From an uncultured Verrucomicrobiota bacterium (GTDB taxonomy: Bacteria > Verrucomicrobiota > Kiritimatiellia > CAIVKH01), in contig CALKUH010000038.1 in the NCBI GenBank assembly GCA_937996795.1, positions 31,516-95,515 on the forward strand: DNA of 64,000 bases, read 5' to 3'. The notes beneath the pieces are model-generated. The model saw nothing but the letters and a program-made list of their open reading frames with translations. It was not told the origin of the DNA and ran no database searches. The stretch's first letter is position 1. Each line of letters begins with the position of its first letter. Positions 7,349 through 58,837 of this stretch are shown here, in pieces. A program made the position numbers and the translations under genes.

Positions 7349-7408
7349 AGGTGTCGGGTTTCGGGTGTCGGGGAAGAGGTGATGGAGCTTCCCGACACCT
7401 GACACCCT
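7349..7408 (+). repeat. REP-like GC-rich hairpin element immediately downstream of the GH13 gene stop. A second copy is at 58788-58837.
   Basis: ggtgtcgggtttcgggtgtcggggaag-aggtgatggagctt-cccgacacctgacaccc. It shares 17 nt, TCCCGACACCTGACACC, with the other copy. Confidence 0.55.
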
Positions 7409-7622
7409 CCGCTCACTTCCTGGCCGTCTGTCTTGTCCGCCACAACCTTGGCGAAGGCGGAAAATTACAGACGTTGCAGGCGCCCCAGACCGTTTTTACA
7501 GACGTTGCAAATATTTCAAATTCGCAGAATGTCCGAATGTATCCGTTACATTCGCCTCACATCAGGAGTACGTTGATTCCTTCAGCCAATTTGTAATTTT
7601 ATCAATTACTGGCGGGGGATAC

Positions 7623-10600
7623 ATGAGGATCGCTCTTCGCGCGTTGGGGGTTTTGCTGGTCGGCTTGATGGCCGTCGCCGGGGCACGGGCGGATGAGGTC
7701 CGAGTGCTGGTGATGAGCCCGGGGCCGACGAATTTTGCCTATGGGTTTCCGGGCGCGCGGATCAGCGATCACCTGCGGGAGTTGCTCACAGGCAGCGGCC
7801 AGTACAGCAATGTGCTGGTGACGTATCGCAGCGTGGCGCTCGATGCCTCGCTATCGACGAGCCTGCTGGGCGCGTATTATGTGCCGCCATTCCGCACGCA
7901 GCACCTCGCGGCGGTGCTGTCGACGAACTGGACGCACGTCGTGATGATTGACCGTCCGTTTTTCTACGCGGCCGCGCCGGAACTACATTATGTGGGCGTC
8001 AACGCGTGGGCGAAATTCATCTCGCGCGCGGGTGCGCAGCCGGTACTGATGATGCCGTGGGTGGACCGGGCGACGATGGACCAGAACTTCGTGTCGGTGA
8101 ACAACGCGCAGGTGCGCGAATTTGCGTATCGCGTGGGCGACGGCGCGCGGGACCACCTCGGGCAGCCGGTCCCCGTCGTGCCCGCGGGCGTCGCGTGGAG
8201 CACGCTGCCCGCGACCAACCGCGGCGCCCTGCCGACGCAGCCGGGCAACGGCGTGATTCTCAACACGAACGGCGAATACACCGCCGCCGCGTCGCTCTTC
8301 ACGTACCTCACGGGGGAAAACGCGAAGTCGGTGAATTACCTGCCGCCGGGCATGACGGAGACCAATCGGGACGCGATCGCGGACCACGTCGCGACGGTGC
8401 TGTCGAACGAGGCGAACGCCGTGCGCTACACGGGCGCGTTCGAGAACCCGCGCATGAAGCTGTGGGCGGGCACGACCAACCTGCACTACAGCGAGGAGGG
8501 CACGAGCACCGAGGTCGCGATCGCGGACCAGTTGCACCGAATGAGCCAGGCGGATGGCTTCCCCGTCTTCAACACAACGGGCACGTACGCAACCAACAAC
8601 GGGGTCAACATCCGCCGGTCGAACCTGGTGTTTGGCCGCTACAATTTCCTCTATCCGAACACGATCACCAACTACGACCTTGGCGTGCCGCCGACCACGA
8701 TGCTGGCGACCTTCGACCGGCAGGGTGACACGGTGAATTCCGGCGTGAGCGGCGCGTCGGGCGCTGAATCCGAACTGTACTGGCACTATACGTACAGCCT
8801 GCTCGGCGACTACACCTTCATCCCCTACCACCTGTTCTGGGTGCGGACGATGTATGACCTGGGCATTCCGATCGACAACTTCAACACGCACGCGCCGGAC
8901 TGGCAGTTCGCGGCGACGGCGTCCGCCATGTATACCCTGCGCAGGGGTGGGCGCAACGGGGTGCATCCGGCCGTCGCGGGTCGCGCGTACTGGAGCCCGC
9001 AGATCCGGACCGAACGCTTCGCGTGGCGCACGATGCAGATGGCGTGGGAGACGATGATGGAGATGGCGACGCTCGCGCCGGCGCCGACCCACCGCGTGCG
9101 CGCGCTCGGGTTTGACCGGATCATCGACGCGGAGGCCTTTCACGAGGCGCCGGGTCCGATAACGCTCGTGACCAATCCGCTGGAGACCCTGCACCTCGCG
9201 CAACTGCAGGAGGGCGACTGGACGGGATACGACATTGATTTCGGAACGCCCGCGCCGCACGCGCTCGCGTTTGTCGGGCGCCTCGCGTGCAACACGGCGG
9301 GCGCGCAGATCGAGATCCGCCACCAGAGCCCAACCGGCACGTTGTTTGGCACGGTAACGGTGCCGTCGACCGGCGGACCGAACACGTTCTGGGAAACACG
9401 CCACCTGCTGACGTCCAGCGGGCTGACCGGCACGCAACTCGTGGTGCTTGTGTATCGCGTGCCCGGCGGTACACAGCTGGCGCTGGATCACTTCCGGCTC
9501 ACCCTGCTCGCGCGCGATGGCGACAGCGCGTGGCGCAACGTGGGCGGCGGCCCGTGGTCCACCTCGACGAATTGGTCGCTCGGCACGCCCGACGGCGCCG
9601 GGGTGACCGCGACATTCTCGATCGACCTCCCCGGCGCCAATGTCGCGACCATCCCGGTCAGTTACAGCGGGACGAGTACGCTGGGTCGGCTCGTGCTCGG
9701 ACACGGCATCGGCACCAACGGCGGCGCAAGCATCACGGGAACGGACAGCGATCTCCTGCGCATGCACAACGGCGGCAGTCCGGCGGAAATCCGCAAGCCC
9801 GCCGGCGGCGCGGATGTCCTCGACGTGCCGATTTTCAACACCAACGACCTGCGGATCAACAACCGCTCGACGGCGACCCTCTCGCTGCTGCGCACTATTT
9901 CCGGCGGCGGCGCCCTCTACCCGTTCGGGCGCGTCCGTTTCGAGGGCGCGAACTACGACGTCGGCCGCGTCGGACACAACAACGGGTTCGGCACGGAGGA
10001 CCTCGCGTTTCCAAACACGGTCGTGGGCTGGTTCGCCACCGGCACGATCCGGAACCTCTCGATGCCGATCTACACGACGTGGAACCTCCACGGCGCGATC
10101 ACAAACCTCGGCTGGACGGACATCGGCAACGACAACTCCGGCACGACGGCGAGCGGAACGTTCAACATCAACGGCGGCGTGCTCCGCCACGCGACCACCA
10201 ATTTCTTCCGCCTCGGCAACAGCATCAACTGCACGACGGTCATCAACCTCAACGGCGGCCTGATTGACACGATGGTGGGCTTCACACAGCGCGCCGCGAC
10301 GCTGACGATCAACCTCGACGGGGGGACGCTCCGCTACTCGGGCTCAACGGACCTGACGAACTGGATCGCGAAACCCGCGGGCCGTCCCCTCACGGTTCGC
10401 GTAGGCGGCAACGGTGCGCGCTTCGACATTGTCACCGGGCGCACGGTCGCACTCCCTCACGCGCTCTCAAGCACGAACGCAGACGCCGGAATTGAGAAGC
10501 TGGGAGGCGGCGCCTTTGTACTCGCCGCGTCGAACAGTTTTCGGGGCCCGGTTGCCGTGCAAGCGGGTACGCTGCGGGTGACAAGCCCCTTCGGCCTCGG

Positions 10601-11393
10601 CGCCGCCCGCCAGTTCCTCGTACCCGCGGGCAGCGTGCTCGACATTCCCGGCCCGCAGACGCTGGTCCTCGACGGGACAAACGCCAGCTGGACCGGCGGG
10701 GGCGCGCTGCAAGGCGGCCTCACGCTGACGAACGCACGGATGGCGCTGGTCGCGGGCCAGCCGCTGATCGTCACGGGCAACGTCCTGCTCGGGCCAAGCG
10801 GCACGCGCATCCTGGACATTTCGGGCACGCTGCCGGGCCCCGGCGCCTATCCCCTGCTGCACGCCGCATCGATCACCGGGACCTTCAACAGCGTGCTCGG
10901 CATGCCCTCGGCGCCCACGGGCTTCACCGCGCAGCTCGTGTATGAAACGACGCAGGTACTGATCCGCGTTGCCGGTCCCGGCGAGGCATGGCTGTCCACC
11001 AACGCCGCGCCGGGCGCGAAATTCGGCGAGGACCCGGACACCAACGGCTGGACCTATCTGGAGGAATACGCCTTCGGAATCCCGCCCGGCGGAACGGGCA
11101 AGGATCAGCGCGCGCCCGGGCTCTCCCCCAGCAACACCCTGCACCTGGCGTTCACCTACAACACGACCGCCATCGACGCGAGCATCGACGTGCTCGCGGG
11201 CACGAACCTGTTCCAGTGGACGCCGATCTTCAGCAAGCCCGCGGGGTCCGCCACGAACTGGACACCGCTTGTGCCCGGCGCCGTGCTGCAGCAGGGTCCG
11301 ATCACGGGCACCTACCAGACCGTGACCGTGCGCGGCCCCGGCACGAATGAGGTCAACAGCTTCATCATGCTGGACGTCCGGCGGCTGGAGTAG
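7623..11393 (+). CDS. Large secreted protein (1256 aa) with a CBM6/35-like beta-sandwich, autotransporter-associated beta-strand (PATR) repeats and a conserved C-terminal module. The N-terminal ~480 aa is of unknown function.
   Basis: Signal peptide MRIALRALGVLLVGLMAVAGARA. PATR-like repeats (IEKLGGGAFVLAASNSFRGPVAVQAGTLRV…, GGGALQGGLTLTNARMALVAG…). The C-terminal tail carries W…GEDPDTNGWTYLEEYAFG. Confidence 0.6.
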   Translation: MRIALRALGVLLVGLMAVAGARADEVRVLVMSPGPTNFAYGFPGARISDHLRELLTGSGQYSNVLVTYRSVALDASLSTSLLGAYYVPPFRTQHLAAVLSTNWTHVVMIDRPFFYAAAPELHYVGVNAWAKFISRAGAQPVLMMPWVDRATMDQNFVSVNNAQVREFAYRVGDGARDHLGQPVPVVPAGVAWSTLPATNRGALPTQPGNGVILNTNGEYTAAASLFTYLTGENAKSVNYLPPGMTETNRDAIADHVATVLSNEANAVRYTGAFENPRMKLWAGTTNLHYSEEGTSTEVAIADQLHRMSQADGFPVFNTTGTYATNNGVNIRRSNLVFGRYNFLYPNTITNYDLGVPPTTMLATFDRQGDTVNSGVSGASGAESELYWHYTYSLLGDYTFIPYHLFWVRTMYDLGIPIDNFNTHAPDWQFAATASAMYTLRRGGRNGVHPAVAGRAYWSPQIRTERFAWRTMQMAWETMMEMATLAPAPTHRVRALGFDRIIDAEAFHEAPGPITLVTNPLETLHLAQLQEGDWTGYDIDFGTPAPHALAFVGRLACNTAGAQIEIRHQSPTGTLFGTVTVPSTGGPNTFWETRHLLTSSGLTGTQLVVLVYRVPGGTQLALDHFRLTLLARDGDSAWRNVGGGPWSTSTNWSLGTPDGAGVTATFSIDLPGANVATIPVSYSGTSTLGRLVLGHGIGTNGGASITGTDSDLLRMHNGGSPAEIRKPAGGADVLDVPIFNTNDLRINNRSTATLSLLRTISGGGALYPFGRVRFEGANYDVGRVGHNNGFGTEDLAFPNTVVGWFATGTIRNLSMPIYTTWNLHGAITNLGWTDIGNDNSGTTASGTFNINGGVLRHATTNFFRLGNSINCTTVINLNGGLIDTMVGFTQRAATLTINLDGGTLRYSGSTDLTNWIAKPAGRPLTVRVGGNGARFDIVTGRTVALPHALSSTNADAGIEKLGGGAFVLAASNSFRGPVAVQAGTLRVTSPFGLGAARQFLVPAGSVLDIPGPQTLVLDGTNASWTGGGALQGGLTLTNARMALVAGQPLIVTGNVLLGPSGTRILDISGTLPGPGAYPLLHAASITGTFNSVLGMPSAPTGFTAQLVYETTQVLIRVAGPGEAWLSTNAAPGAKFGEDPDTNGWTYLEEYAFGIPPGGTGKDQRAPGLSPSNTLHLAFTYNTTAIDASIDVLAGTNLFQWTPIFSKPAGSATNWTPLVPGAVLQQGPITGTYQTVTVRGPGTNEVNSFIMLDVRRLE

Positions 11394-11397
11394 GTTC

Positions 11398-11453
11398 GGT
11401 GACCCGTGACCAGTAATCAGTGACCGGTCACTGATTACTGGTCACAGGTCACC
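11398..11453. terminator. 56-bp palindrome with a 40-bp perfect core (gtgaccagtaatcagtgacc|ggtcactgattactggtcac). It fills the gap between convergent genes and is a putative bidirectional terminator or protein-binding site.
   Basis: Arms 11406-11425 and 11426-11445 are exact reverse complements with no loop. They are flanked by further GTGACC/GGTCAC hexamers. There is no U-tract on either side. Confidence 0.5.
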
Positions 11454-11458
11454 AATTC

Positions 11459-12802
11459 TCAAGCCCCCGTGCGACTTTGCAATAGCAGGCTCACGCCGCG
11501 CTGGGTGAATTCGCGCAGGACGTCGCCGAGCGGGCGTTTGCGCGGTTCGGGAATGCGGCGCAACAGGAAGAGCGCCGAGAATCGCAGCACGCCGGACATC
11601 AAGAAGAGACTGTGGTAGCCGGTCCACTGGAAAGAGCCGATCGCGAAGGTCCAGCGCGAGAACAGCTCAAACAGCGGACCGGAACAGAACCCCGTCACGA
11701 ATCCGGTAATGCCCGCGCAGGCCCCCAGCACGGACATGTAGGCGATGCGGTAGCGCGCGGGCGCGGTGGTCAGGCTGAGGTTGAAGAGCGCGGTGTTGAA
11801 TCCGCCCCACCCCAGGGAGTCGACGAAACTGCTGACCCAGATGAAGAACAGGAACCCCGGCATCGCGGCGATCCAGCAGCCGGGCAGCAGGACGGCGACG
11901 ATGACGAGCGTGATGGTGAGCACGGTCTTGTGGCCGACCTGGTCCGCGAGCCGCCCCCACAGCGGCATGGTGACGAGGCTGCACAGCGCCGCAATGGCGC
12001 TCCACAGCGCCACCTGGGTAAACGTCATGCCGAGGTGCTTCAACAGATACGGGATCACAAACGGCGACCCCAGCATGATCGCGCCATTCCAGTACATCGC
12101 GAACGCCAGGAAGCGGCGGAAGTTGGCATCGCGCAGCGGCACGCGCACCATCTCCGGGAGCGAGAGACGCGGCATGGGGCGGTGGGGATCCGCGTGCCAG
12201 CCGTACATCACGATGCCGACCAGCGCGAACAGGACGCCGACGGAGAGCAGCATCTGAAACCCGCCCGGCGATGGCGCGCGGTCGAGATAGAATCCGGCCG
12301 AAAGACCGGCCGCCATACCGACCACCCCGCAGACGCTGTTGCGAAAACCGAAATAGCGTCCGCGGATCTCATTCGGCACCACATCCGCCATCAGGCTGAC
12401 CCATGCGGGTCCGACCCCGCTTTGCAGGAAGCCCGAAAGCGCAATCAGGCCGACCAGCACCCACGCCGCCGGCCAGATATCCGGCGCCAGCCACGGCAGG
12501 AAGATGGCGAGCACCCACAGGCCGCGGCCCAGCGACGTCAGGAGTTGCACGTAGCCCGTGCGCCTGTTCAGCCGCGTGCCCAGCCACGCCAGCAACGGGC
12601 TCACCACCTGGACCAGCAACGGCGCGCTGGCCGCCGCGGCGAGCGCCCGCGGACCCGCGCCGAGCGCGAGCAGATAGCCGGTCAATACGGCGCCGCTGGT
12701 CCACGCGAGGAACACCGTGGTGAAACAGCCCTCGATGACCGACAGGCCGAGCGTACGGCGCGCATTCTGGTCGGCGTCGCAGGGCGAAGGAATCGGAAGC
12801 AT
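11459..12802 (-). CDS. MFS transporter (448 aa).
   Basis: 12 hydrophobic segments. The MFS-like loop motif GRLADQVGHK sits between TM2 and TM3. Start chosen at MLPIPSP (ATG 12802). The ORF-track N-terminal extension is Arg-rich and overlaps the upstream gene, so it is rejected. Confidence 0.7.
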   Translation of the reverse strand: MLPIPSPCDADQNARRTLGLSVIEGCFTTVFLAWTSGAVLTGYLLALGAGPRALAAAASAPLLVQVVSPLLAWLGTRLNRRTGYVQLLTSLGRGLWVLAIFLPWLAPDIWPAAWVLVGLIALSGFLQSGVGPAWVSLMADVVPNEIRGRYFGFRNSVCGVVGMAAGLSAGFYLDRAPSPGGFQMLLSVGVLFALVGIVMYGWHADPHRPMPRLSLPEMVRVPLRDANFRRFLAFAMYWNGAIMLGSPFVIPYLLKHLGMTFTQVALWSAIAALCSLVTMPLWGRLADQVGHKTVLTITLVIVAVLLPGCWIAAMPGFLFFIWVSSFVDSLGWGGFNTALFNLSLTTAPARYRIAYMSVLGACAGITGFVTGFCSGPLFELFSRWTFAIGSFQWTGYHSLFLMSGVLRFSALFLLRRIPEPRKRPLGDVLREFTQRGVSLLLQSRTGA

Positions 12803-12815
12803 CCGCGGCAGCGCG

Positions 12816-13676
12816 TTACCGCCGGAATTTGTCGAATCGTTCAATCCATTCCTCCACCGACAGTCCGTAGTGCGATGACAACGCAGAAGGCAGGGCTTCG
12901 CCGCGCGCGAGCGCGAGCAGGAACGGCGCGAATTTTTCCGGCGGCTGCTCCAGTTGCAGGTAGCCCACGAGGTGTTTCGCCGTCTGGTAGAAAATGGAAA
13001 CCTGGCGGGGATCCTCCGGATACGCCGTCGCCGCAAGCAGCGCGGGCAGCGGATACGTCGAGCGCAAGCCCGCGAACTGCGCGCGTTTGCTGCGCTTGGT
13101 CCCCTTGAAGGCCGCGTAGGCGAAGGCGCCGTACCACTCGGCCAGCCCCTCGTTGAGCCAGAGCGGAATCTCGCCCTCGACCAGCCGGTTCAACACAAGG
13201 TGCGTCATCTCGTGGCCGAGGACCTCCGCGCTGGAGCCGATGTCCGCCGCCTGCTGCAAATACATCACGGGGCCGTGGACCATCGAGAACGACCACTCGA
13301 GGCCGCCGCGGTGGTACTGCGTGAGAAACAAGGTCCAGTCCTTCGCATTCCGGAAAATGAAGATATGCGAGCGGCCTTCGACGCGGTCGGCCAGCCCGCC
13401 GAGATCGTCGGCGATGAAGCGGTGGAAGAACTCGGCCATGCGCGCGACCTTCGCGGCAAAAATGCCGTTCTCGAAATGCAGAACGAAATGCTCCGTCTGC
13501 GCGTGGCGCCACTTGAATTCCGGCGCATCGATCAGCGCGCGGGCAACACCGGCCAGCTGCCGCGAGTCCACATCATCGCGCTCGATCACGCGCCAGTCCT
13601 CGCGCTCCACGGGCGGCGCGGCGACGGAGGCCCAGCAGGAGACCAGCAGCAGCACCGTGGTGAGAAGGCCTTTCAT
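12816..13676 (-). CDS. Secreted putative zinc metallopeptidase (HExxH…E gluzincin-like), 286 aa.
   Basis: Signal peptide MKGLLTTVLLLVSCWASVAA. HEMTH motif followed by a downstream NEGLAEW glutamate. Confidence 0.5.
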   Translation of the reverse strand: MKGLLTTVLLLVSCWASVAAPPVEREDWRVIERDDVDSRQLAGVARALIDAPEFKWRHAQTEHFVLHFENGIFAAKVARMAEFFHRFIADDLGGLADRVEGRSHIFIFRNAKDWTLFLTQYHRGGLEWSFSMVHGPVMYLQQAADIGSSAEVLGHEMTHLVLNRLVEGEIPLWLNEGLAEWYGAFAYAAFKGTKRSKRAQFAGLRSTYPLPALLAATAYPEDPRQVSIFYQTAKHLVGYLQLEQPPEKFAPFLLALARGEALPSALSSHYGLSVEEWIERFDKFRR

Positions 13677-15268: not shown

Positions 15269-15700
15269 TCACGCCGACAACACGCGCAGATGGGACAGCG
15301 GGAATTGTTTGAATCCCCGGTCAAACGTGACCAGTTCGCAACGTTCCACCTCGGCGAAGGCCGCCAGCCAGGCATCGGTCCATACATTGGGCGTGGGGGC
15401 GCGGTCGCGAACAAAGGCGCGCCAGAGCGAATCGATGCCAACGGGCGCATCATTTCGCACCACCGCCCGCGCATCGTTTAACAAACTGTCCAACGCGTGC
15501 CACGCCGCATCGGGCGCGAGCACACCCTCGCCCATCAGCGCGCGGTTGGTCAGCAGGCGCAACACGGCCATGCGCACGGGCAGGGTGAATACGACAGAGT
15601 CGTCAGCTTGACGATCCCACCACGCCTCGGCCGCCGCCCGATGCACGTGCGAATCCAGGAGCAGCGGCAGCGCAACGTTCGCGTCAACCAGACACTTCAT
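15269..15700 (-). CDS. vapC: Type II toxin, PIN-domain ribonuclease (VapC family).
   Basis: MKCLVDANVALPLL… PIN acidic residues. ATGA overlap with the upstream antitoxin gene. Confidence 0.75.
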   Translation of the reverse strand: MKCLVDANVALPLLLDSHVHRAAAEAWWDRQADDSVVFTLPVRMAVLRLLTNRALMGEGVLAPDAAWHALDSLLNDARAVVRNDAPVGIDSLWRAFVRDRAPTPNVWTDAWLAAFAEVERCELVTFDRGFKQFPLSHLRVLSA

Positions 15701-15972
15701 GAGCCGCCGCCGGGGCGCAGTACGCGCCGCGCGATCTCCGCGTCCGCCGCTTCTTCAGCAGCTGCGAGTTCCGCCGGGCCCAGGGTCAGGATCGGCGCAT
15801 GAGCCGGCACACGAATACGAGGCAACGGCATTCGCTTCCGCAACGCCGGTCTCCCGGCCAACTCATGCTCCACCGCCTGCGTAACCAACTCGCGCAAGGT
15901 CGAACCCCGCTCGGCGGCCAACCGTTTCGCCAGCCGGAAGGTTTGATCCGGTAATTCAATGGTCGTCCTCAT
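15697..15972 (-). CDS. vapB: Type II antitoxin (VapB-like, 91 aa).
   Basis: MRTTIELPDQTFRLAKRLAAERGSTLRELV… Gene position and a 4-nt overlap with vapC. The long N-terminal extension in the ORF track is rejected (His/Arg-rich, crosses the promoter). Confidence 0.6.
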   Translation of the reverse strand: MRTTIELPDQTFRLAKRLAAERGSTLRELVTQAVEHELAGRPALRKRMPLPRIRVPAHAPILTLGPAELAAAEEAADAEIARRVLRPGGGS

Positions 15973-16065: not shown

Positions 16066-16935
16066 ATGAGCGCGCAGGATGAGGTGATTTATCTGGAGCG
16101 GGATGGGCTGAAGCGGCGATATGTGCTGCATCGGCCGCCCGCGTGTGCGCCGGACCGGACGCATCCGGTGGTGGTGATGCTGGACGGGCGCGGGGGGACG
16201 CCGTGGACAGGCATGAAGAGCACGGGCTGGAATGCCCAGGCGGACGCGCATGGGTTTCTCGTCGCCTACCCCGAGGCCACGCGCATGGACCCTTCCGGGC
16301 CGCTGCATTTCCTGGATAATCCGCAGATGTGGAACGCGGGCATCGGCAGTTCAGACGCCGAGCGGCCGCCGGTGGACGACGTCGGCTTCCTGCGCGCGGT
16401 GCTCGACGATCTTCTCGCGCGCGGCGCGGCGAAGCCGGGACACATCGCGATGTGCGGCTTCTCGAATGGCGCGTCGATGACCTTCCGCTTCGCCGTCGAA
16501 GCCGGCGAACGGCTCGCCGCCATCGGCACCGTCGCCGGGCATTTTCGTTCCGGCCACCAGCCGGGCGCCGCCCTGCCCCTCGCCCACTTCTTCGGCAAAC
16601 TCGACCCGCTGAGTCCCTATGACGGAGGCATGGTCGAACTGCCGTGGGGCCGCACGGAATGGCGACCGCCCGCGCGAGACTCGGCGCAGGCGTGGGCTGC
16701 GCGACTCGGCTGGCGCGAGGATGAAGCGCGCATCGAATCGCGGGACGGCGTAACGATTGAGCGCTGGGGCACGCCAGGCGACACCCGCGAGGTGATGTTC
16801 ACCACCATCCACGACCTCGGCCACGTCTGGCCGGGCGGACATCGGCTGCTTCCGGAAACGCTGGTCGGGAAGGCGTCCGACCGACTCTCCGCGACGGCGG
16901 AACTCTGGTCGTTTTTTGCGCGACACTTCCGATGA
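16066..16935 (+). CDS. Alpha/beta-hydrolase esterase of the PHB-depolymerase (LpqC-like) family.
   Basis: GFSNGASM nucleophile elbow, with a downstream His. Start at MSAQDEV (ATG 16066). The upstream part of the track ORF is AT-rich promoter DNA. Confidence 0.65.
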   Translation: MSAQDEVIYLERDGLKRRYVLHRPPACAPDRTHPVVVMLDGRGGTPWTGMKSTGWNAQADAHGFLVAYPEATRMDPSGPLHFLDNPQMWNAGIGSSDAERPPVDDVGFLRAVLDDLLARGAAKPGHIAMCGFSNGASMTFRFAVEAGERLAAIGTVAGHFRSGHQPGAALPLAHFFGKLDPLSPYDGGMVELPWGRTEWRPPARDSAQAWAARLGWREDEARIESRDGVTIERWGTPGDTREVMFTTIHDLGHVWPGGHRLLPETLVGKASDRLSATAELWSFFARHFR

Positions 16936-17837
16936 GCGGCTGGCTCCAGCGCTATCCGCCGCGCGGGTTGTTTTGCCTGCTGCTTGTGTACATCGTGTGG
17001 GGCAGCACGTATCTCGGCATCCGCTACGCCGTGCGGGAAGGCAGCGGCTTCCCGCCGTTCAGCATGGCGGCGGCGCGCGCGCTGACCGGCGGGTTGATCC
17101 TGCTTGGACTCGGCCTCGCCTTCCGGCACCGGCTGCGCATCACCCGGCGCGAGTTCGGCCTGCTGATGCTGTCCTCGATCCTGCTCTGGAACGGCGGCAA
17201 CGGACTCGTCACCTGGGCCGAGCAGCGCGCGCACTCCGCGTTCGCCGCGCTCGTGGTCGGTTCCACGCCGCTGTACAGCGCCATCGTCGAGGCGATCCTC
17301 AACCGCAAGCGCCCGTCGCTCCTGCTGATCGCTTCGTGGCTGGTGGGACTCGCCGGGTTGTATGTCCTGACCAAACCGGCGCTCGACGCGGGCACGCCCG
17401 CCGACCTCTGGGCGACCGTCGCGCTCCTGCTCGCGCCGCTGAGTTGGAGCATCGGGTCGGCGATCCAGTTGCGGAACCCGCTCGGCCTGTCGACGTTCGC
17501 AAGCTCGGGCTACCAGCAATTGTTCGGCACCATCGGTTTCCTCGTCCTGCTGACCGCCACAGGCGAGCCGGCGCCGCAGCCCACGGCGGAGGCGTGGTGG
17601 GCGTGGGGCTATCTTGTCGTGTTCGGATCCGTGATCGGCTTCACGTCGTTCGTCTACGCGCTGCGCACGCTGCCCGTGCCGGTGGTGATGACGTATGGCT
17701 TCGTGAATCCCGTGATCGCGGTGTTCCTCGGCTGGTTCTTCCTCAGCGAGGCGATCACCCCCACCACGCTCGCCGGCACCGCGCTGATCCTCGCCGGCGT
17801 CGGCGGCGTCTTCCGCGAAAAACACGCGACGAAATAG
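16932..17837 (+). CDS. EamA/DMT-family transporter.
   Basis: 10 TM helices arranged as two EamA repeats. ATGA overlap with the esterase gene. Confidence 0.8.
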   Translation: MSGWLQRYPPRGLFCLLLVYIVWGSTYLGIRYAVREGSGFPPFSMAAARALTGGLILLGLGLAFRHRLRITRREFGLLMLSSILLWNGGNGLVTWAEQRAHSAFAALVVGSTPLYSAIVEAILNRKRPSLLLIASWLVGLAGLYVLTKPALDAGTPADLWATVALLLAPLSWSIGSAIQLRNPLGLSTFASSGYQQLFGTIGFLVLLTATGEPAPQPTAEAWWAWGYLVVFGSVIGFTSFVYALRTLPVPVVMTYGFVNPVIAVFLGWFFLSEAITPTTLAGTALILAGVGGVFREKHATK

Positions 17838-17840
17838 GAG

Positions 17841-17978
17841 TTTACCACGGAGACACGGAGCACTCGGAGAGTACAACCACGAATAGACACGAATGCACAC
17901 AACTCATAAAGCATACGGATTCGTGTTCATTCGTGATTCGTTTCTTCTCCGCGTCCTCCGTGCCTCCGTGGTGAATTT
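17841..17978. repeat. ~135-bp compound imperfect palindrome that fills the convergent EamA/murJ intergenic gap.
   Basis: The outer arms (accacggagacacggagcactcggagag and its near-reverse-complement ctc..ctccgtgcctccgtggt) and the inner arms (cacgaatagacacgaatgc and gattcgtgttcattcgtgattcg) surround a ~18-nt loop. The region is AT-richer than its surroundings. Confidence 0.5.
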
Positions 17979-19649
17979 TTACTTCGCGACGCGGCGGCGC
18001 AGGGCGTCGCGGGCGAAGCCGAGTTCGGGGGCGCGCAGCGCGAGGGCGGCGCCGAAGTAAGCGGCGATGCCGGTCGCGATGGCGAGCAGGACGGATCCGA
18101 CTTCAACCAGTTTGGCTGGCGCACCGGACTGCGCGAGGCCCGCTGCCAGCGCGGGACGGACGGCGAGCAGGATCACCGCCATTACGGCGGAGCACGCCAG
18201 CGCACGCGACGCCGCCGCAAACACCGGACGCCACTCCAGCGCGCCGAGACGCCGCTGGAGCAGGACGCCGAGCGTGATGCCGTTGACGCCCTCCGACAAC
18301 ACCGTCGCGAACGCGAGCCCGGCGTGTTTCAGGTCGTGCGGCCACGTCAGCACGAACGCCACGTTCAATGCAAAATTCAGCGCGACCGCGCGCAGCCCGA
18401 TGCGGAACGGCGTGCGCGTGTCCTGCAATGCGTAGAAGGCGGGCACAAACACCTTCGCGAGGCAGAACACCATCAGGCCCGGCGCGTAGAATTGCAGCGC
18501 GATGGCGGTGTGCGACACGGCGGCGGCGTCGAACCGGCCCCATCCGAAAATCATCTGCACGATCGGCTCCGCCAGCACGAGCAGGCCGATGGACGCGGGG
18601 ATCATCACGAACAGCAGCGTGCGCAGCGAATGACCCAGTGTCTGGCGCATCTCCGCGTGGTCGCCGCGCGCCGCGTGCCCGGAAAACACCGGCAGCAGCA
18701 CCGTGCTCATCGCCGTGGCGAGCAGGCCCTGCGGGAAATACAGCAGGCGCTCGGCGTAAAACAGCGACGCGGGCGCCCACTCCGCGGCCCAGCGCGCGAG
18801 CAGCGTGTTGACCATCACATTAACCTGCGTCACCGACTGGCCCAACGCGGTGGGGCCCATCAGCGTGAATACGCGCCGGACGCGCGCATCCGACGTATCC
18901 CACGTGAACCCCGGCCGGAACCCGCGCCGCATCAGCGCCGGCACCTGCACACCCATCTGCACGAGGCCCGCGACGAAGACGGCCGCCGCGATGCCGTAGA
19001 TCTGCTGCTCCGGCGTGTCGCCAAGACGCGGGCAAACCAGCAGCACGAACCCGATCCACACCATGTTCAGCAGGCTCGGCGTGAACGCGGGCAGCGAGAA
19101 CTGGTGGCACGCGTTGAGCATCGCCATGAACAGGCCCGCGAGGCAGATGAACACCACGTACGGCAACATCACGCGCATCAGCGGCAGCAGGTGCGGCGCG
19201 CGCTCCGCGAGGTCGGGGTTCAACCCTTCGAGGGCAAAGGTCCCGAGGATGAGGAGGAGGACGAGGAGCGAGAGGAAGGCCGCCACGAGCGTCACGGTCT
19301 TGCGCGCGACGAGCCACGCGGAGGCATCGCCCTCCTCGCGCCGGGTCGCCATGAACACGGGCACGAAAGCCGACGACAAGGCCCCCTCGCCGAAGAGGGC
19401 GCGGAAGAGGTTGGGCAGGCGGAACGCGACGACGAAGTCCGACATCACCGCGCTGGTGCCGAAGAGGCTCGCGGTCAGCGTGTCACGCACCAGCCCGAGC
19501 ACGCGGCTCAGCGACGTAAAGCTGCCAACCTTGAAGGCCGAGCGGATGACGCGGTTTTTCTCCACAGAGCGCTGGATGATGCCGGGAAGCGCACGGGAAC
19601 GGAAGCCCGATTCCAAAACCCGCCCGATCCGGCGGGTGACGCAACTCAA
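17979..19649 (-). CDS. murJ: Lipid II flippase MurJ/MviN.
   Basis: LSRVLGLVRDTLTASLFG…FVVAFRLPNLFRALFGEGALSSAFVPVF, with 14 TM helices. The exact start is uncertain. Confidence 0.8.
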   Translation of the reverse strand: MSCVTRRIGRVLESGFRSRALPGIIQRSVEKNRVIRSAFKVGSFTSLSRVLGLVRDTLTASLFGTSAVMSDFVVAFRLPNLFRALFGEGALSSAFVPVFMATRREEGDASAWLVARKTVTLVAAFLSLLVLLLILGTFALEGLNPDLAERAPHLLPLMRVMLPYVVFICLAGLFMAMLNACHQFSLPAFTPSLLNMVWIGFVLLVCPRLGDTPEQQIYGIAAAVFVAGLVQMGVQVPALMRRGFRPGFTWDTSDARVRRVFTLMGPTALGQSVTQVNVMVNTLLARWAAEWAPASLFYAERLLYFPQGLLATAMSTVLLPVFSGHAARGDHAEMRQTLGHSLRTLLFVMIPASIGLLVLAEPIVQMIFGWGRFDAAAVSHTAIALQFYAPGLMVFCLAKVFVPAFYALQDTRTPFRIGLRAVALNFALNVAFVLTWPHDLKHAGLAFATVLSEGVNGITLGVLLQRRLGALEWRPVFAAASRALACSAVMAVILLAVRPALAAGLAQSGAPAKLVEVGSVLLAIATGIAAYFGAALALRAPELGFARDALRRRVAK

Positions 19650-32330: not shown

Positions 32331-32417
32331 AGGTCCGTCCTCGTCCTTGTCGTCGTCCTCGCCCTCGACAACCGGATCACGAGGAGGAGAACGAGGACGA
32401 CGACGGGGACGAATGGC

Positions 32418-45730: not shown

Positions 45731-45969
45731 TCGCAAGCCGAAAGCGCACACGTACACGTTCTCGTTCGCGTGCACGAAGCATCGCGAACGGGAACGTGAG
45801 ACGTGAACGGGTGGGAATCAAGAAAACCCCGCGAAACCGCTTGCAACCGCGGGGGGGTGCCGGTAGCTTTGCGCCATGTTTTCGCTGCAACTGACTTTGT
45901 CCGCGCGCCGCCCGGCGACCGTTTGATGGTCCGCCCGATCATGCCTGCGCGCCTTTCCCCCCTCTCCGT

Positions 45970-58777: not shown

Positions 58778-58787
58778 GTTGAAGAGG

Positions 58788-58837
58788 GTTTCAGGTGTCA
58801 GGGAGGAGCGCTCCCGACACCTGACACCTGACACCCG
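58788..58837 (+). repeat. REP-like GC-rich hairpin element, lying between the sbp and cysT genes. A second copy is at 7349-7408.
   Basis: ggtttcaggtgtcagggag-gagcg-ctcccgacacctgacacctgacaccc. It shares GGGTTTC.RGGTGTC.RGGGA.G and TCCCGACACCTGACACC with the 7349-7408 copy. Confidence 0.55.

Follow-up and report, generated by a model that had tools for sequence, protein, structure and literature searches.

Judged by sequence comparison, the 135-base palindrome between the convergent EamA and MurJ genes of the 64-kb window (the whole stretch of DNA analysed) is one copy of a dispersed hairpin-repeat family and not a locus-specific terminator. The fuller reading, to which a probability of roughly 0.6 is assigned, holds that this family is non-autonomous and resembles REPINs, MITEs and ERIC, and that the present copy was gained in the EamA–MurJ gap. 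Comparison between loci attests the recurrence of the family, its range across phyla, its modular nesting and the gain of the element at the EamA/MurJ site.

Position and structure of the palindrome

The two genes are separated by a gap of 141 nt that consists almost entirely of palindrome (Table 1). The initial annotation had described a two-tier imperfect palindrome of ~135 bp that fills the convergent gap, is AT-richer than its surroundings and closes in an 18-nt loop. These points are borne out: the palindrome extends over 17841-17975 and takes up 135 of the 141 nt, its GC content is 0.50 compared with 0.67 for the window, and the loop length comes close to the ~20 unpaired apical bases (17897-17916) of the fold. 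The unit strings quoted at that time were exact. A repeat search returned the outer inverted repeat as 17830-17870 / 17946-17986 (41 nt, 80% complementary) and the inner one as 17875-17894 / 17919-17938 (20 nt, 85% complementary). The minimum free energy structures of both strands fold the two-arm palindrome on a single symmetry axis, with RNA folding energies of -73.1 kcal/mol for the + strand and -77.9 for the - strand. Shuffled versions average -35 and -39, respectively, none of 200 shuffles being as stable (z ~ -10 for both strands), and folding with DNA parameters yields -35.9 kcal/mol (z -6.6). When the whole window is scanned by GC-corrected folding of sliding 150-nt segments, the element is the top outlier at -5.25 sd. 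It also displays several features by which MITEs are recognized, namely terminal inverted arms of ~31 nt, a total length of 135 nt and zero coding capacity.

Table 1. Window coordinates of the palindrome, its parts and the flanking genes
Feature	Position	Strand	Description
Whole compound palindromic element	17841..17975	none	135 nt, GC 0.50
Outer left arm	17841..17871	none	TTTACCACGGAG-A-CACGGAG-CA-CTCGGAG-AG; three heptamer units, spacers of 1 and 2 nt
Inner left arm, nested second module	17875..17894	none	AACCACGAAT-AGA-CACGAAT; inverted repeat I2
Apical region	17895..17918	none	~20 nt unpaired (17897-17916) in MFE structures
Inner right arm	17919..17938	none	ATTCGTG-TTC-ATTCGTGATT; inverted repeat I2, 85% complementary
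Outer right arm	17945..17975	none	reverse complement is TTCACCACGGAG-G-CACGGAG-GA-CGCGGAG-AA
T5 run	17976..17980	+	directly 3' of the stem; overlaps the MurJ stop codon; possible U-tract of the EamA transcript
EamA-family transporter gene (flank)	16932..17837	+	Pfam EamA, 3e-33; stop TAG at 17835-17837
MurJ lipid II flippase gene (flank)	17979..19649	-	Pfam MurJ, 2e-106; stop TAA, read as TTA at 17979-17981 on the + strand

Recurrence and arm consensus

Members of the family are defined by an arm close to the consensus, by two inverted arms at most 450 nt apart that form one symmetric hairpin, and by a variable interior; the window element possesses all three (arms, symmetric inverted pair, and variable and nested interior). 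The arm consensus of ~31 nt (TTCACCACGGAGRCACGGAGGACACGGAGAA) can be written TTCAC-CACGGAG-R-CACGGAG-RR-CACGGAG-AA, in which the 1-nt and 2-nt spacers are fixed and the flanks are palindromic. The left and right outer arms of the window element are identical to this consensus at 27/31 and 30/31 positions, and nhmmer, run with a profile of 266 arms from other loci, recovers the right arm with an E value of 3.4e-9 and the left arm with 1.4e-6. Inverted arm pairs of this type are found in hundreds of contigs of environmental origin. A 20-mer common to both arms (ACCACGGAGRCACGGAGSAC) has matches in at least 120 contigs of the metagenome collection, and a 16-mer from the arm in at least 120 contigs of viral_contigs; the true metagenome total must be higher, since the contig of the window itself is absent among the 80 loci listed. 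For comparison, an unrelated 15-mer gave 87 mostly single matches in the whole viral collection. Among the matches listed, 76 of the 123 evaluable metagenome cases and 99 of the 180 viral ones have an inverted partner arm no more than 450 nt away, and a third CACGGAG unit, which was outside the search pattern, is present in 141 of these 180. The TTCA head, equally outside the pattern, is common as well. The resulting catalogue of paired elements comprises 144 elements in 121 loci, 48-440 nt long with a median of ~108, and 77 solo arms were counted under a strict definition. The number of units ranges from 2 to 4, and in some elements all units of both arms are altered together, being either all CACAGAG or all CACGAAG. 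Instead of facing each other, arms can also stand back to back, a right-type arm followed 10-15 nt later by a left-type arm (L068 1231-1311, L116 1473-1551, L077 1126-1200).

Hosts and copy density

On the basis of the loci compared, the family appears in at least three bacterial phyla, given here as Kiritimatiellota, Gemmatimonadota and Alphaproteobacteria, and as a variant in Gammaproteobacteria. The Gemmatimonadota isolate Gemmatirosa kalamazoonensis has two megaplasmids with copies at 6 and 4 places, some of them nested. Copies are also carried by related contigs with an RcGTA-like phage tail cluster, whose closest named homologs come from Stellaceae MAGs (Alphaproteobacteria), and on a typical soil contig with a family copy there is a gene for a radical SAM protein that shares 84% identity with a Stellaceae MAG protein. 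The variant, with arms of CACGGAG units, is found on plasmid pTs485 of the gammaproteobacterium Candidatus Thiodictyon syntrophicum (L272, 357876-358516). The plasmid locus, situated between two genes with the anti-phage annotations DUF499 and DUF3780, holds a cluster of five arms, two of the left type and three of the right, whose head differs (TCTCTCACGGAG).

Copy density can be high, as exemplified by ~8 elements in 12.7 kb (L243) and ~6 in 10.6 kb (L198). The Kiritimatiellia genome examined here carries one copy in the 64-kb window plus ~12 kb of flanks (~76 kb), and a search of ~190 kb of other Kiritimatiellia MAG loci returned no copy. The likeness to a MITE drawn in the initial annotation is upheld in its chief prediction: TIR-like ends recur in other genomes and phyla, but there is a single copy in ~76 kb and no transposase was found. 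Likewise, the copy search it had called for gave no second copy within the window, whereas the element recurs widely in metagenome and viral contigs.

Gain of the element at the EamA/MurJ junction

The host of the window was assigned to Kiritimatiellia, its MurJ being 76-83% identical to proteins of Kiritimatiellia MAGs. An identical EamA protein followed by the start of the palindrome is present on contigs from three independent assemblies (JGI, ENA, Logan). Two contigs with identical EamA, L002 (ENA ERZ795037) and L003 (Logan SRR5576004), run out 40-56 nt beyond the stop codon and within the palindrome, which appears to break short-read assemblies. A strain from another sample with 99% identical MurJ (L270) retains the element in a gap of the same 141 nt, where 2 bases are substituted: one belongs to the right arm, the other to the flank adjoining the element. 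This comparison indicates stability of the element across two strains of 99% identity.

More distant relatives lack the hairpin. In one of them (L008), EamA and MurJ likewise converge and are 14 nt apart, and the C-terminal reading of its EamA (LGTALILAGVAGVF) agrees with the window; in another (L020) the two gene ends overlap; in a third (L271, 85% MurJ identity) an extra gene lies between EamA and MurJ, the gaps of 29-32 nt being free of the element. The gaps of 141 and 14 nt differ by 127 nt, which equals the length of the element measured as CCAC...GTGG. The hairpin is thus not ancestral at this junction, and the comparison with these relatives, whose MurJ identity is 80-85%, indicates that the element was gained there in the lineage of the window. 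These relatives manage without a hairpin at the junction.

Interior, nesting and turnover

The interiors of different copies are wholly different and measure from ~12 to >300 nt, and in 105 of the 136 unique elements (77%) the apical loop lies within 6 nt of the centre. In long copies, a second module is often nested about the shared axis; it follows the same grammar, 'AACCAC-NNNN-n-CAC-NNNN', with the units GAAT, AGAT, GGAT, AAAG or GAAG. For example, a peat contig (L087) combines a CACGGAG outer with a CACGAAT inner module, as in the window. At L243, a module made up of CACAGAG/CAGTGAG arms and a GGCGCTTCGCGCC core is present twice alone and once nested inside CACGGAG arms. In Gemmatirosa, arms of the CCGCAGAGG type enclose CACGGAG-type arms.

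Related Stellaceae-like contigs carry hairpins of one common architecture at orthologous intergenic sites, where types with differing units and lengths (48-288 nt) replace one another. Within the RcGTA-like tail gene cluster of such contigs (L080/L174/L193/L245 and relatives), orthologous sites hold differing hairpin types and lengths, a turnover that suggests either a selected need for a hairpin there or recurrent replacement. The orthologous pair L032/L144 differs by an apical indel, and one side of L032 has been re-matched to the other. GCGAAGC, a very stable DNA mini-hairpin motif, is not enriched as a core in the elements (0.49 per kb) relative to their flanks (0.36 per kb). In the flanks of the Stellaceae-like loci, GCGAAGC/GCTTCGC at 0.36 per kb reaches ~3x the expectation for a random 7-mer (~0.12 per kb on two strands) and is mostly located at the tip of small GC-rich hairpins.

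Mobility

The flanks of the elements are themselves palindromic (a.TTCA/CCACGG...CCGTGG/TGAA.t), and flank profiles reveal no direct repeat; because of the palindromic flanks, a target duplication would be indistinguishable from the inverted repeat. In a limited sample, no transposase or RAYT-like gene was found beside arms or between arm pairs 0.6-2 kb apart, where ordinary small ORFs are located. Genes flanked by arms include those for ribH, nuoH, phage coat and hub, a ParB-like protein and a D12 methyltransferase. A palindromic unit of the REP type was not found either: the folding energies of single arms, -0.3 to -0.7 kcal/mol, are no lower than those of shuffled sequences. An integron attC origin was considered and rejected, as the ends read TTCACCAC ... 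GTGGTGAA rather than RYYYAAC ... GTTRRRY and the flanking genes are core genes, not cassettes.

The element would have reached the junction by horizontal transfer followed by a copy-in event. Copying may depend on a trans-acting protein with specificity for the arms, or else hairpins may recombine or switch templates with one another. A tentative and rather doubtful extension of this scheme is that the family belongs to a new class of mobile DNA, either enzyme-independent or driven by a novel enzyme, in which modular 'CAC + 4 nt' hairpins copy themselves into hairpin apices or gene-end gaps. Such copying would produce nested same-axis palindromes with fast turnover at fixed intergenic positions and would cross phyla. 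Of its lineages, the CACGGAG type would be the most successful, with a sister lineage in the GTGTCAG heptamer hairpins of the window.

Transcription and binding

On the + strand, the stem ends in GGUGAA followed by UUUUU and is flagged by a simple terminator scan; the tail on the - strand (CUCCUAUUUCG) is U-poor. The gene context of the family was established with a simple ORF and GC3 gene call in which elements were masked. By this measure, 73 elements lie between co-directional, 12 between convergent and 9 between divergent genes, at a median distance of 15-30 nt to the ORF on each side. TTTT is present within 15 nt downstream of 23% of the co-directional copies, and the mirror AAAA upstream of 18%. 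Furthermore, nuoH and ribH normally belong to essential multigene operons, and efficient termination by the arms around them would therefore be harmful. The family therefore seems not to be a set of canonical terminators.

A consensus scan detected no promoter-like site in or adjoining the EamA/MurJ gap. Across the family, the variable purine between units does not covary between the two arms (GG 30, GA 14, AG 23, AA 19; Fisher p = 0.27), and neither G.U versus A.C mismatches nor strand folding energy are biased by the direction of the flanking genes (39 vs 43 for ++, 67 vs 70 for --). As there is neither covariation nor strand bias and the single arm is unstructured, the arm appears to be conserved as a sequence, and the hairpin shows no visible compensatory upkeep. 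A role of the arms as Shine-Dalgarno sequence or translation enhancer, conceivable from GGAGG in the left arm and CCUCC in the right, was dismissed, the orientation of solo arms to downstream ORF starts being 27 vs 36 (not significant). Some solo arms end 1-12 nt before the ATG of a long ORF, the last GGAG occupying the position of a ribosome-binding site. A putative resemblance to the CsrA motif (CANGGANG) is at odds with the non-GGA unit variants.

We infer that the element has a local effect on mRNA ends. It would be transcribed from both sides, and both mRNAs would end in an interrupted stem of ~60 bp. With U5 directly after it, the stem would probably terminate transcription on the EamA side; on the MurJ side, it might act mainly as a pause site and as a barrier to 3' exonucleases. 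This role at the 3' end would be a by-product and not the reason why the sequence exists.

Alternative explanations

The dispersed-family reading itself has to account for the single copy in ~76 kb and for the ~190 kb of other Kiritimatiellia MAG loci that have none; moreover, the different hairpins of like architecture at orthologous sites could mean that the hairpin itself is selected. Its strongest rival, as the arm sequence is conserved independently of pairing, is a DNA-level array of protein-binding sites, in which the three heptamer boxes of each arm, at fixed spacing, are contacted by a conserved DNA-binding protein, for instance a nucleoid-associated, partition-like or recombinase-like one, and the hairpin potential is a by-product. 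The independent variation of the two arms at the purine position (p = 0.27), the absence of a G.U versus A.C asymmetry by transcription direction, the spacers of 1 and 2 nt fixed throughout the family, and the 77 strict solo arms together with the back-to-back arms are all in line with such an array. However, no candidate protein was found, hosts in different phyla would require a binder that is very widely conserved or co-transferred, sister modules (CACGAAT, CGCAAAG, GACGAAT) have a like architecture and unlike sequence, and 77% of the elements are symmetric single hairpins, so that this explanation is considered unlikely. The remaining three explanations are each contradicted by several results.

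According to one of them, the palindrome arose in situ as a bidirectional intrinsic terminator dedicated to insulating the EamA and MurJ transcripts. Its location exactly between two stop codons, its very stable stem, the T5 run after the stem on the + strand and the presence of long hairpins at other gene ends of the window speak for this proposal, which is nevertheless improbable: the arms share 27-30 of 31 positions with a consensus from other phyla, in relatives the two genes end 14 nt apart or overlap, and family copies flank nuoH and ribH. The bidirectional function proposed in the initial annotation is conceivable at most as a local side effect: T5 follows the stem on the + strand, but the tail of the - strand is U-poor, and in the family TTTT follows only 23% of the co-directional copies (AAAA precedes 18%) and most copies are located between genes of one direction. 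Highly improbable, in turn, is an immobile local hairpin generated by template switching during replication and by unit slippage, with the likeness between genomes due to convergence on a favoured unit. Unit numbers of 2 to 4, unit variants that extend over whole elements (all CACAGAG, all CACGAAG), the apical indel of L032/L144 with one re-matched side in L032, and the fast hairpin turnover at orthologous sites would all be expected from such a process; yet convergence cannot account for ~31 nt shared across phyla, including the non-repetitive TTCAC head and fixed spacers, and the arms lack the covariation that self-templating predicts. A structured small RNA, also put forward initially, or a cis-regulatory RNA in the gap would fit the very stable fold of both strands; with no promoter-like site in or near the gap, no Rfam match, no arm covariation or strand bias, and a hypervariable interior, the proposal is unsupported and hardly credible.

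Relation to described repeats

No Rfam family matches the 64-kb window at gathering threshold, the best permissive hit being a chance match to mir-3149 (24.5 bits versus a gathering threshold of 100), and 16 typical family loci gave no match at gathering threshold either. A full-text search of literature outside the subscription journals retrieved unrelated primers or nothing for the arm strings, and searches by keyword brought up general comparators only. The hairpin-repeat family is thus apparently undescribed.

The Correia/NEMIS, ERIC and MITE elements have TIR-like ends, are shorter than 500 bp, non-coding and intergenic, and are co-transcribed with their flanks, so that they can affect mRNA ends; ERIC and Correia are limited to one family or genus. 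The present family shares with MITEs, Correia and ERIC the TIR-like ends, the length of <500 bp, and the non-coding and intergenic nature, but differs in its internally repetitive arms and in that no parent insertion sequence was found. MITEs and ERIC rank among the nearest described systems (reviewed in PMC3184786). REPINs are doublets of REP sequences that form hairpins and are mobilised by RAYT transposases (Bertels & Rainey 2011, PMC3116915). Like the family, they consist of two short inverted repeats around a spacer that form a hairpin of ~100 nt, and they are extragenic, non-autonomous and multicopy, with singlets occurring as well. In contrast to the REP unit, which is itself a small palindrome, the family arm is composed of three spaced direct heptamers and does not fold alone. 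Further differences are that no RAYT gene was found in the loci examined, that the interior varies from ~12 to >300 nt, and that modules are nested and several phyla are involved. Bidirectional intrinsic terminators resemble the element in their position between convergent genes, the stable stem and the T-run on one side, whereas the stem of the element is several times longer and not GC-rich, and the U-tract is missing on one side and in most family members.

Similarities to heptameric and other tiny repeats also exist. Cyanobacterial small dispersed repeats (SDRs), described by Elhai et al. in 2008, reportedly measure 21-27 nt, have no known enzyme, reside in larger hairpins and are nested in one another. 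STRRs are tandem repeats of 7-nt heptamers in the intergenic regions of cyanobacteria. SDRs and STRRs resemble the family in their tiny nested repeats or 7-nt units and differ in sequence, hosts and size. The TAACTGA heptamers of Beggiatoaceae, Cyanobacteria and Bacteroidetes occur in 169 direct sets and one indirect set just upstream of start codons (MacGregor 2015, PMC4679880). They have in common with the family short intergenic tandem units and a patchy occurrence across phyla; for both, horizontal spread is suggested and its mechanism is not evident. Family arms, in contrast, are mostly arranged as inverted hairpin pairs and show no orientation bias toward starts.

REP, REPIN, ERIC and MITE sequences are normally bound to a genus or family and to a cognate transposase, from which the present family is set apart by an arm consensus that crosses phyla, by arms made of three spaced heptamers rather than a palindromic unit, and by nested same-axis modules that are replaced at orthologous sites. 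If confirmed, the family would offer a tractable system for studying how tiny repeats, with no obvious enzyme to drive them, spread inside a genome and from one genome to another. It would also bear on the origin and turnover of intergenic hairpins and on the share of 3'-end structure in environmental bacteria that is parasitic rather than designed. In practical terms, palindromes of this kind appear to break short-read assemblies and are at risk of being mis-annotated as terminators or sRNAs.

Other hairpins and genes in the window

A second family of heptamer-arm hairpins (GGTGTCA/GGTGTCG ... CCCGACACCTGACACC) is represented just past gene ends, twice in the window (7350-7410 and 58787-58835) and once in another Kiritimatiellia MAG (L009 589-608). 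Its 15-mer has an inverted partner in 16 of 89 matches in viral_contigs, which argues that this family is dispersed as well; a literature search by full text outside the subscription journals yielded nothing relevant for its strings. Between convergent genes at 7623-11393 (+) and 11459-13036 (-) lies a near-perfect palindrome of 28+28 nt with GTGACC units, zero loop and 96% complementarity (11396-11455), and a module with GGTGATC units akin to it is nested in L161 (1802-2002). Two further long hairpins with low-complexity arms are located between co-directional genes, at 32338-32412 (GTCGTC/GTCCTC units) and 45748-45805 (ACGTG/CACGT units). In the host genome, many gene ends seem to be marked by hairpins with short tandem repeats as arms. 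Finally, two PIN-domain toxin genes are encoded in the window at 15269-15972 (-) and ~51.2-51.9 kb (L360 2613-3253), each after a small ORF. The pairs resemble toxin-antitoxin modules; one of the small ORFs has a weak FitA-like RHH match, and one pair is found ~1 kb upstream of EamA.
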